Of a stretch of 64,000 nucleotides of DNA, positions 8,090 through 11,622 are shown piece by piece. Position numbers and translations under genes: made by a program. The stretch is from Octopus vulgaris (lineage: Eukaryota), in assembly GCA_951406725.2 (NCBI GenBank), contig OX597842.1, forward strand, positions 21,080,001 through 21,144,000, read 5' to 3'. Position 1 is the first letter of the stretch. Each line of letters opens with the position of its first letter. A model generated the notes under the pieces. It did no database searches, was not told the origin of the DNA, and saw only the letters and a list, made by a program, of their open reading frames with translations.

Positions 8090-11000
8090 AAAACCATATC
8101 ATTGTGACATCTGTGGTAAATCATTCTCTGAAAGTCGTGTCCTAACTAAACACCAGTGTAGGATAGAAACCATATCATTGTGACATCTGTGGTAAATCAT
8201 TCTCTGAAAGTCGTGTCCTAACTAAACACCAGTGCAGGATAGAAACCATATCATTGTGATATCTGTGGTAAATCATTCTCTGAAAGTCGTGTCCTAACTA
8301 AACACCAGTGCAGGATAGAAACCATATCATTGTGACATCTGTGGTAAATCATTCTCTGAAAGTGGTGTCCTAACTAAACACCAGTGCAGGATAGAAACCA
8401 TATCATTGTGACATCTGTGGTAAATCATTCTCTGAAAGTGGTGTCCTAACTAAACACCAGTGCAGGATAGAAACCATATCATTGTGATATCTGTGGTAAA
8501 TCATTCTCTGAAAGTCGTGTCCTAACTAAACACCAGTGCAGGATAGAAACCATAGCATTGTGATATCTGTGGTAAATCATTCTCTGAAAGTCGTGTCCTA
8601 ACTAAACACCAGTGCAGGATAGAAACCATATCATTGTGATATCTGTGGTAAATCATTCTCTGAAAGTCGTGTCCTAACTAAACACCAGTGCAGGATAGAA
8701 ACCATATCATTGTGATATCTGTGGTAAATCATTCTCTGAAAGTGGTGTCCTAACTAAACACCAGTGCAGGATAGAAACCATATCATTGTGACATCTGTGG
8801 TAAATCATTCTCTGAAAGTGGTGTCCTAACTAAACACCAGTGCAGGATAGAAACCATAGCATTGTGATATCTGTGGTAAATCATTCTCTGAAAGTGGTGT
8901 CCTAACTAAACACCAGTGCAGGATAGAAACCATATCATTGTGATATCTGTGGTAAATCATTCTCTGAAAGTGGTGTCCTAACTAAACACCAGTGCAGGAT
9001 AGAAACCATAGCATTGTGATATCTGTGGTAAATCATTCTCTGAAAGTGGTGTCCTAACTAAACACCAGTGCAGGATAGAAACCATATCATTGTGATATCT
9101 GTGGTAAATCATTCTCTGAAAGTGGTGTCCTAACTAAACACCAGTGCAGGATAGAAACCATAGCATTGTGATATCTGTGGTAAATCATTCTCTGAAAGTG
9201 GTGTCCTAACTAAACACCAGTGCAGGATAGAAACCATATCATTGTGATATCTGTGGTAAATCATTCTCTGAAAGTGGTGTCCTAACTAAACACCAGTGCA
9301 GGATAGAAACCATATCATTGTGATATCTGTGGTAAATCATTCTCTGAAAGTGTGTCCTAACTAAACACCAGTGCAGGATAGAAACCATACATTGTGATAT
9401 CTGTGGTAAATCATTCTCTGAAAGTGGTGTCCTAACTAAACACCAGTGCAGGATAGAAACCATAACATTGTGATATCTGTGGTAAATCATTCTCTGAAAG
9501 TGGTGTCCTAACTAAACACCAGTGCAGGATAGAAACCATATCATTGTGATATCTGTGGTAAATCATTCTCTGAAAGTGGTGTCCTAACTAAACACCAGTG
9601 CAGGATAGAAACCATAACATTGTGATATCTGTGGTAAATCATTCTCTGAAAGTGGTGTCCTAACTAAACACCAGTGCAGGATAGAAACCATATCATTGTG
9701 ATATCTGTGGTAAATCATTCTCTGAAAGTGGTGTCCTAACTAAACACCAGTGCAGGATAGAAACCATAGCATTGTGATATCTGTGGTAAATCATTCTCTG
9801 AAAGTGGTGTCCTAACTAAACACCAGTGCAGGATAGAAACCATAGCATTGTGACATCTGTGGTAAATCATTCTCTGAAAGTCGTGTCCTAACTAAACACC
9901 AGTGCAGGATAGAAACCATAGCATTGTGACATCTGTGGTAAATCATTCTCTGAAAGTCGTGTCCTAACTAAACACCAGTGCAGGATAGAAACCATAGCAT
10001 TGTGATATCTGTGGTAATTCATTCTCTGAAAGTGGTGTCCTAACTAAACACCAGTGCAGGATAGAAACCATAGCATTGTGATATCTGTGGTAAATCATTC
10101 TCTGAAAGTTGTGTCCTAACTAAACACCAGTGCAGGATAGAAACCATAGCATTGTGACATCTGTGGTAAATCATTCTCTGAAAGATATGTCCTAACTAAA
10201 CACCAGTGCAGGATAGAAACCATAGCATTGTGACATCTGTGGTAAATCATTCTCTGAAAGTCGTGTCCTAACTAAACACCAGTGCAGGATAGAAACCATA
10301 GCATTGTGATATCTGTGGTAAATCATTCTCTGAAAGTGGTGTTCTAACTAAACACCAGTGCAGGATAGAAACCATAGCATTGTGATATCTGTGGTAAATC
10401 ATTCTCTGAAAGTGGTGTCCTAACTAAACACCAGTGCAGGATAGAAACCATAGCATTGTGATATCTGTGGTAAATCATTCTCTGAAAGTCGTGTCCTAAC
10501 TAAACACCAGTGCAGGATAGAAACCATAGCATTGTGATATCTGTGGTAAATCATTCTCTGAAAGTCGTGTCCTAACTAAACACCAGTGCAGGATAGAAAC
10601 CATAGCATTGTGATATCTGTGGTAAATCATTCTCTGAAAGATGTGTCCTAACTAAACACCAGTGCAGGATAGAAACCATAGCATTGTGATATCTGTGGTA
10701 AATCATTCTCTGAAAGTCGTGTCCTAACTAAACACCAGTGCAGGATAGAAACCATAGCATTGTGATATCTGTGGTAAATCATTCTCTGAAAGTTGTGTCC
10801 TAACTAAACACCAGTGCAGGATAGAAACCATATCATTGTGATATCTGTGGTAAATCATTCTCTGAAAGTCGTGTCCTAACTAAACACCAGTGCAGGATAG
10901 AAACCATATCATTGTGATATCTGTGGTAAATCATTCTCTGAAAGTCGTGTCCTAACTAAACACCAGTGCAGGATAGAAACCATATCATTGTGATATCTGT

Positions 11001-11622
11001 GGTAAATCATTCTCTGAAAGTCGTGTCCTAACTAAACACCAGTGCAGGATAGAAACCATATCATTGTGATATCTGTGGTAAATCATTCTCTGAAAGTCGT
11101 GTCCTAACTAAACACCAGTGCAGGATAGAAACCATATCATTGTGATATCTGTGGTAAATCATTCTCTGAAAGTTGTGTCCTAACTAAACACCAGTGCAGG
11201 ATAGAAACCATATCATTGTGATATCTGTGGTAAATCATTCTCTGAAAGTCGTGTCCTAACTAAACACCAGTGCAGGATAGAAACCATATCATTGTGATAT
11301 CTGTGGTAAATCATTCTCTGAAAGTCGTGTCCTAACTAAACACCAGTGCAGGATAGAAACCATATCATTGTGATATCTGTGGTAAATCATTCTCTGAAAG
11401 TCGTGTCCTAACTAAACACCAGTGCAGGATAGAAACCATATCATTGTGATATCTGTGGTAAATCATTCTCTGAAAGTCGTGTCCTAACTAAACACCAGTG
11501 CAGGATAGAAACCATATCATTGTGATATCTGTGGTAAATCATTCTCTGAAAGTGTGTCCTAACTAAACACCAGTGCAGGATAGAAACCATATCATTGTGA
11601 TATCTGTGGTAAATCATTCTCA
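8090..11622 (+). repeat. 76-bp tandem minisatellite derived from one degenerate zinc finger (about 46 copies)
   Basis: Unit gaaaccatatcattgtgatatctgtggtaaatcattctctgaaagtcgtgtcctaactaaacaccagtgcaggata. Units start at 8166, 8242, and so on (period 76 = an 84-bp finger minus 8). Confidence 0.97.

Follow-up and report, generated by a model that had tools for sequence, protein, structure and literature searches.

Zinc-finger (ZNF) clusters are among the largest gene expansions of cephalopods, and the C2H2 genes of Octopus bimaculoides are said, following work by Albertin and colleagues in 2015, to be enriched in neighbouring tandem repeats of 70-90 bp, which were reportedly likened to human beta-satellite and not derived from fingers. 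Beta-satellite itself has a unit of 68 bp and lies between genes. Arrays of it were reportedly described by Eichler and colleagues in 1998 in the KRAB-ZNF cluster of human 19p12, and to our knowledge this satellite is not known as finger-derived. Finger decay is also known from the 3' tails of tandem ZNF genes, in which degenerate fingers lie between a frameshift or stop and the poly(A) signal; these fingers are normally single copies.

The finger array of PRDM9, with its unit of 84 bp, is described in an excerpt of PMC8600002 as a minisatellite in which template switching or conversion brings about change; switches inside a finger give rise to hybrid units. In the library model of satellite evolution, as an excerpt of PMC8122249 presents it, a unit common to related species is amplified to different extents. 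The literature searched, which excluded most subscription papers, yielded no account of a broken zinc finger giving rise to a non-coding minisatellite, and excerpts of PMC10547256, PMC9795677, PMC9115989 and PMC6962438 make no mention of one.

The window analysed here, a stretch of 64,000 nucleotides from Octopus vulgaris (contig OX597842.1, positions 21,080,001 to 21,144,000), carries four C2H2 zinc-finger genes on the same strand. Their upstream sequence is 96.9-98.1% identical between genes and their ORFs begin with the same 12 residues; the four genes are the product of tandem duplication. Degenerate terminal fingers are present in the 3' tails of all four genes, and in the tail of gene 1 one such finger has been multiplied. 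We consider it likely that the resulting array is genuine, that it is a young non-coding minisatellite whose unit comes from a dead C2H2 finger of an octopod ZNF gene tail, and that it is most likely functionless or neutral. The features on which the following analysis is based are listed below.

6518..8023, + strand: gene 1 ZNF ORF, taken from the first ATG common to all four genes; 501 aa; 17 C2H2 fingers; ends TGKTISL-stop (coordinates of the ZNF ORF only, upstream exons being unmapped)
8003..8004, + strand: 2-bp loss in a linker (GG here, GGGG in the homologous linker at 7751-7754); the resulting frameshift creates the gene 1 stop
8007..8090, + strand: out-of-frame, intact-looking finger before the array; 82 of 84 bases as in the finger before the gene 4 copy
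8091..11583, + strand: minisatellite made up of the 76-bp dead finger in 46 copies, which fall into 17 sequence types (Tandem Repeats Finder and unit splitting)
11584..11751, + strand: two further dead fingers, one with its first His changed to Tyr, the other with its second Cys changed to Tyr
11973..11999, + strand: AATAAA pair (11973 and 11994), conserved in all four genes; predicted poly(A) signal
18244..19077, + strand: gene 2 ORF, a paralogue without the 76-bp finger, with a frameshift and a dead-finger tail of its own
24745..26145, + strand: gene 3 ORF, ending in the 76-bp dead finger
26068..26143, + strand: single dead finger of gene 3, in the cgt state, closing the ORF 24745-26145
34115..34960, + strand: gene 4 ORF; the dead finger is behind its stop, in the non-coding tail
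35184..35259, + strand: single dead finger of gene 4, in the gac and ggt states; identical to array units 4, 5 and 10

Tandem Repeats Finder places the array at 8091-11621, with a period of 76, 46.5 copies and 98% matches. Splitting into units yielded 43 units of 76 bp and three of 75 bp (units 17, 18 and 46), the last of which ends at 11583; the remaining half copy (11584-11621) corresponds to the opening 38 bp of the finger that follows, so that the downstream dead fingers repeat the unit start. The count of 46 is that of the units as assembled, the copy number coming from the assembly alone. With head-to-tail units of 76 bp, 46 of them over 3.5 kb, the locus falls within the range of minisatellites, which have units of about 10-100 bp in arrays of 0.5 to several kb. 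Compared with the nearest intact fingers the unit lacks 8 bp, and the unit peptide aligns to positions 1-21 of the 23 positions of Pfam zf-C2H2, the last His being missing. Both flanks of the array are unique and collinear with gene 4.

Comparison with the known systems brings out likenesses as well as differences. Like the octopus repeats reported by Albertin and colleagues, the array belongs to an octopod C2H2 cluster, has a period (76) within 70-90 bp and sits directly beside a ZNF ORF; unlike those repeats as reported, its unit is shown to be a finger remnant, the two being compared by description and not by sequence. With the beta-satellite of 19p12 it shares the setting of a short-period satellite inside a tandemly expanding ZNF cluster, and it differs in lying inside a gene tail and in being itself a finger. 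It also departs from the usual degenerate terminal fingers, which decay as single copies, since one finger has here been amplified 46-fold.

A 24-base motif spanning the 8-bp deletion matches the window 48 times, that is 46 times in the array and once each at 26119 and 35235. The motif was found neither in gene 2 nor in the coding fingers of the window, it was absent from 100 shuffles, and it had no exact match in the metagenome contigs. The numbers of copies in genes 3, 4 and 1 are accordingly 1, 1 and 46, in agreement with a preliminary description of this DNA, which had reported the finger as single-copy in genes 3 and 4 and present about 46 times in gene 1. The same description regarded the broken finger as the terminal one; this is true of gene 3, where it is the last coding finger, and not of gene 4, whose copy sits in the tail some 220 bp past the stop at 34960. 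It was right in placing the array between the gene 1 stop and the conserved AATAAA pair. Between stop and pair there are 3,950 bases in gene 1 as against 388-688 in the paralogues, and the position of the array fits that of a predicted 3' UTR element of gene 1.

The gene 1 stop (8021-8023) precedes the array by one intact finger. It results from the separate 2-bp loss in the linker and not from the 8-bp deletion. That loss, located at about 8003 in a G run, is either real slippage or a consensus error; in the latter case the stop would shift to 8181-8183 and only unit 1 would be coding, the other 45 units still being non-coding. Over 8091-11621 the longest stop-free stretch of the sense strand is 41 codons, which rules out a coding array in any frame and upholds the earlier statement that the array is unable to encode fingers in series. 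The accompanying statement that each unit yields ETISL-stop applies to 17 of the 43 full-length units; five end in ETIAL-stop, one in ETITL-stop, and 20 stop at codon 3. A stop-codon variant at column 9 (Tyr to stop) is present in 20 of the 46 units, which is direct evidence that no frame is maintained. Selection for a reading frame does not act on the array, and stop variants have spread freely in it. This sets it apart from PRDM9, where the unit of 84 bp is in frame and coding: the octopus unit measures 76 bp, is without the last His, lies behind a stop and has a stop codon in nearly half of its copies. No in-frame 84-bp unit with a complete C2H2 finger is found in the array, and what it has in common with the PRDM9 type is the near-identity of its units.

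The 46 units differ from one another by a mean of 1.78 of 76 bases (2.3%). Position 9 is T in 25 units, G in 18, A in two and a gap in one; position 18 is T in 37 and C in nine; and the site of helix position +2 reads cgt in 20 units, ggt in 19, tgt in three and three other forms in four. Columns 9, 18 and 46 hold 52 of the 58 substitutions of the 43 full-length units, as against at most 26% in any three columns under random error, and only one of these columns belongs to the recognition helix (+2). As in PRDM9, the array is thus composed of tandem, near-identical units of a single C2H2 finger that differ at few sites.

The variants were expected to come in blocks, and they do: neighbouring units differ by 1.18 bases, compared with 1.79 in shuffles (p = 0.0002, 5,000 permutations), the similarity of neighbours stays above chance out to lag 6, and runs tests on the three sites gave p = 0.0006, 0.012 and 0.0004. 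Whichever two of the three common sites are paired, all four combinations are present. Units 11-16, moreover, switch back and forth between two types (GFGFGF). Both patterns indicate that exchange took place inside units as well as between them. Variant units in blocks, with signs of exchange both within and between units, are what is found in minisatellites. Because the units are mosaics they have no simple tree, and the phylogeny of units that had been proposed was rejected as misleading. Column 46 is the only CpG of the unit and occurs in six forms, which explains the variability of helix position +2 without selection; PRDM9-like selection on this position was considered and rejected, the array being non-coding and the site being the only CpG.

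These patterns also bear on the reality of the array, whose length could be an artefact of assembly in which a short array or a single copy was inflated. No public run matching this genome was found, the best one containing 0.45 of the words of 7900-12100, and both the three units lacking one base and the 2-bp loss at 8003 in the G run are possible long-read consensus errors. We nevertheless judge such inflation to be quite improbable: random read error would neither gather the variation into three columns nor arrange it in blocks, and the 17 distinct units include the tag, taa and tgt states, which are found in the array and absent from both paralogue copies. In addition, the flanks are unique and collinear with gene 4, and a related genome shows excess depth over the same 76-bp unit (see below).

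Regarding its origin, comparison of the three gene tails shows that the 8-bp deletion broke one finger before the duplication of genes 1, 3 and 4, and the gene 4 copy is the best model of the state that preceded the expansion. The dead finger and the next finger, 76 bp apart, have 37 of their first 38 bases in common, and the array ends exactly on that 38-bp stretch. From this anatomy we infer that a misalignment at the 38-bp stretch produced the first duplication. Column 18 is explained by such a founding event, since the gene 4 dead finger has C at this position and the next finger has T. Once near-identical neighbours were present, repeated unequal exchange or template switching, often within units, would have led to 46 copies arranged in blocks, as the variant pattern suggests. 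The same process would have generated small finger duplications in the coding parts, and behind the stop nothing would cap it.

Duplications of this kind are found in the window: in gene 1, coding finger 6 matches finger 10 without a difference over 63 bp, and in gene 3 the coding fingers 7/9, 6/8 and 8/10 show 1-3 differences, fingers 6-10 forming a two-finger repeat. The coding fingers of both genes have thus undergone small recent duplications by the same kind of process as the array. Together with the blocks, the presence of all site combinations and the nonsense variants in 20 of 46 units, they support the earlier proposal of amplification by unequal exchange free of coding constraint. 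The 38-bp repeat as such is not special, because other fingers, which did not expand, are likewise linked by stretches of 36-41 bases that agree with one mismatch or none; the other dead fingers in these gene tails are single-copy. One array set against two single copies cannot prove that the loss of coding constraint caused the expansion. If the poly(A) site of the paralogues is used in gene 1, its 3' UTR would have been extended from 0.4-0.7 kb to about 4 kb, which may reduce the output of the gene as a side effect.

The likeness of the units to paralogous sequences raises the question of whether the array acts at the DNA level, either by giving sequence to paralogous fingers or receiving it from them through gene conversion, or by providing a hotspot at which unequal exchange alters the number of ZNF genes. 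It is indeed a mosaic of paralogue states, given that the upstream finger and the gac and ggt states match gene 4 while the cgt state, carried by 20 units, matches gene 3; the correspondence of cgt with gene 3 and of ggt with gene 4, noted earlier, was confirmed by the variant comparison. Each of the four ORFs also contains exact 21-mers of the unit, at 48-111 sense positions, and these would provide a substrate for ectopic pairing. However, the three other differences of the gene 3 copy from the consensus (positions 3, 12 and 76) are found in none of the 46 units, and the deletion motif occurs in no coding finger of the window. Recurrence of cgt is plausible at a site that is the only CpG and has six forms. 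The private differences of the 3' flank number 10, 9 and 9 in genes 1, 3 and 4, which puts the three genes at about equal distance, so that cgt may be ancestral. The cgt state common to 20 units and gene 3 may, on these comparisons, be ancestral or recurrent, and we regard a DNA-level role of the array as unlikely.

The history of the dead finger was followed into related organisms. Public sequencing runs, in the form of contigs, were searched for words of 7900-12100, and 20 of the 24 runs listed, from organisms A, B and C, contain a part of them; none of these is on record as an RNA run, which says nothing about expression. Four of these runs (X1 and X6 from organism A, X4 from B and X11 from C, with X1 and X11 guessed to be DNA and X6 to be RNA) were compared on the single-copy stretch 35100-35760 of gene 4. 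The bases peculiar to gene 4 at 35514 and 35544 are absent from all four, which are therefore relatives and not this haplotype. Among the 32 contig pieces listed (25,151 further ones exist), 10 overlap the deletion joint, and eight of those 10 extend across it by 31 letters or more in both directions, ungapped and with 4-8 differing letters: two from X1, two from X4, one from X11 and three from X6. Intact-finger DNA aligned ungapped to the same stretch has at least 35 mismatches in 91. Since the joint is bridged in all four runs, which represent three related organisms, the dead finger is real and predates the gene 1 array.

Depth of coverage differs between these runs. Generic linker bins, which agree between runs within 0.93-1.14, were used for scaling, and the scaled depth of X1 at 35229 and 35233, inside the unit, is 9.5 and 11.7 times that of the other three runs; over the three bins covering the unit it is 2.2-3.7 times higher. 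In absolute terms X1 reaches 323,567 at 35233, whereas the 3' flank has about 2,000-2,100 at 35445 and 35557 and no flank bin from 35399 on exceeds 12,716; these are summed contig depths, which are no copy number and are inflated by overlapping contigs, and the X1 flank itself is 2.5 to 9 times deeper than in the other runs. A 46-unit array in X4, X11 or X6 would be hidden by the depth floor of generic fingers. The ggt state dominates in X1, and no G-to-C change is among the variants listed. In three of the runs the 3% threshold for listing a variant comes near the depth of this subfamily or exceeds it, so that the listings do not bear on whether cgt or ggt is ancestral. None of the 15 joints listed for the four runs (74 further ones exist) is a 76-bp go-back joint; a tandem joint would not be expected in contigs, because the 38 bp common to thousands of fingers exceed the 31-letter word.

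The X1 depths hint at a further and separate expansion of the 76-bp unit in one related genome or more. More tentatively, the dead finger could be the seed of an octopod satellite family, present once per gene in an ancestral ZNF subfamily and expanded separately in different lineages, the X1 genome then having perhaps hundreds to thousands of copies of the unit. The 70-90-bp repeats beside octopus C2H2 genes would in that case be at least partly dead fingers and not an analogue of beta-satellite, and ZNF clusters would make their own satellite DNA, which would promote unequal exchange, and perhaps heterochromatin, in the clusters. We regard this wider proposal as less likely than not. It fits the library model in that the dead finger is present in organisms A, B and C, with excess depth in one run; unlike the established satellite families to which that model applies, the seed is a recognisable protein-coding module, and amplification across species is suggested by contig depth only.

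The preliminary description had further suggested that the array, if transcribed, might be a small-RNA source or a decoy. As a functional RNA element it would give rise to small RNAs directed against the ZNF family, or would titrate factors that bind ZNF mRNAs. Its location between the stop and the AATAAA pair is compatible with this, and so is its sequence, which is common to all coding fingers, with exact 21-mers at the 48-111 sense positions per ORF mentioned above. The three X6 contigs that bridge the dead finger, from a run guessed to be RNA, also indicate that the finger is probably transcribed in some paralogue, as a single or a repeated copy. However, the homology is sense-only, with no exact antisense 15-mer on the minus strand of the window, and as a sense copy cannot pair with sense, a transcript of the array would not silence sense ZNF mRNAs. 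No double-stranded precursor of the siRNA or hairpin type is apparent within the window, which contains no inverted repeat involving the array, no hairpin and no antisense partner; three units fold no better than shuffles (z = 0.28), and an Rfam search returned no matches. As a sponge, 46 more half-fingers would be small beside the C2H2 genes of an octopus genome, of which there are about 1,800-2,300 according to an excerpt of PMC6279123. A weak argument in the same direction is that X6 has 5.7 per mille of linker depth over the unit, like the two other DNA runs, as against 69 in X1 from the same organism A, individuals being different and contig depth being a poor measure of expression. We hold an RNA-level function of either type to be highly improbable, and the suggestion of a small-RNA source or decoy found no support. 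The array is most likely neutral, a view drawn from the absence of any sign of function.

Taken as a single neutral array, the locus is a tidy example of known repeat biology. It nonetheless offers a clean natural control for the growth of zinc-finger arrays, with the pre-expansion state next door in a gene 4 copy equal to three of the units, without reading-frame selection, and with the same process operating on a small scale in coding fingers. Rates and tract lengths obtained from it would serve as a neutral reference against which to judge how fingers turn over in octopus ZNFs and in PRDM9-like arrays. Moreover, if the X1 signal is true, a satellite would have been born from a protein-coding module, which would explain in concrete terms where the tandem repeats surrounding cephalopod ZNF clusters come from.

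At the protein level, searches with gene 3 as the query returned generic ZNFs or no match, none of the 205 ZNF proteins compared has an end resembling the dead finger, and none of six ORF forms of the window is present in the protein collection searched. Finger style and a LINE both mark the window as octopod. The finger style closest to that of the window among the 205 proteins is that of an O. sinensis protein (0.71, as against 0.67 for the next). Elsewhere in the window, a LINE ORF1 at 45312-46748 has relatives in octopods, all seven named ones among the 10 relatives examined (of 150 listed) being from Octopus bimaculoides, O. vulgaris, O. sinensis or Argonauta hians.

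In each of the four same-strand C2H2 zinc-finger genes of the window (6518-8023, 18244-19077, 24745-26145 and 34115-34960), the ORF ends at a frameshift, and decaying fingers occupy the tail between the ORF end and the conserved AATAAA pair. Frameshift truncation seems to be the usual origin of the ends in these genes.

6460-6570 in gene 1, with an equivalent place in genes 2-4: N-terminal leader, 24 protein letters

Read by eye, this leader looks like a further decayed finger, partly in a shifted frame; the protein search returned no homologue for it.

Four public runs of related organisms, available as contigs, were compared with the single-copy stretch of gene 4. 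In each DNA run, the depth of the 3' flank of this subfamily (35445-35560) is many times that of the shallowest contigs, as in X1, a probable DNA run of organism A, where it reaches about 2,000 versus 55-60. Because of this excess, the relatives are suggested to carry tens of gene copies of the subfamily, contig depth not being equivalent to copy number. In X6, an RNA-like run of the same organism, one contig (record 32) matching the gene 4 tail (35459-35756) runs about 80 bases beyond the AATAAA pair; the match reaches the end of the compared stretch, and the contig continues for 130 further letters. The pair may thus not be the sole 3' end, or X6 may include DNA or unprocessed RNA.

Several other repeats are present in the window.

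12649-12787: hairpin, 68-nt arms, 93% complementary, 3-nt loop
29402-30010 and 37388-38107, minus strand: retrotransposon fragment, one kind in two copies, downstream of genes 3 and 4
41902-46748, minus strand: LINE with ORF1 and a split ORF2
56265-57077: a further minisatellite with a 166-bp unit, 4.9 copies and 95% matches

The hairpin, about 650 bp downstream of the AATAAA pair of gene 1, belongs to a dispersed repeat and, given a read-through transcript, could form double-stranded RNA. Both copies of the retrotransposon fragment sit within a 3.4-kb block, 97% identical, downstream of genes 3 and 4; the block downstream of gene 1 is without the fragment, from 13542 to the next match. ORF1 of the LINE measures 478 aa from stop to stop and has octopod relatives, and ORF2 comprises endonuclease-like and reverse-transcriptase-like frames with a break near 44160-44190. 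The consensus of the 166-bp minisatellite is not finger-like.
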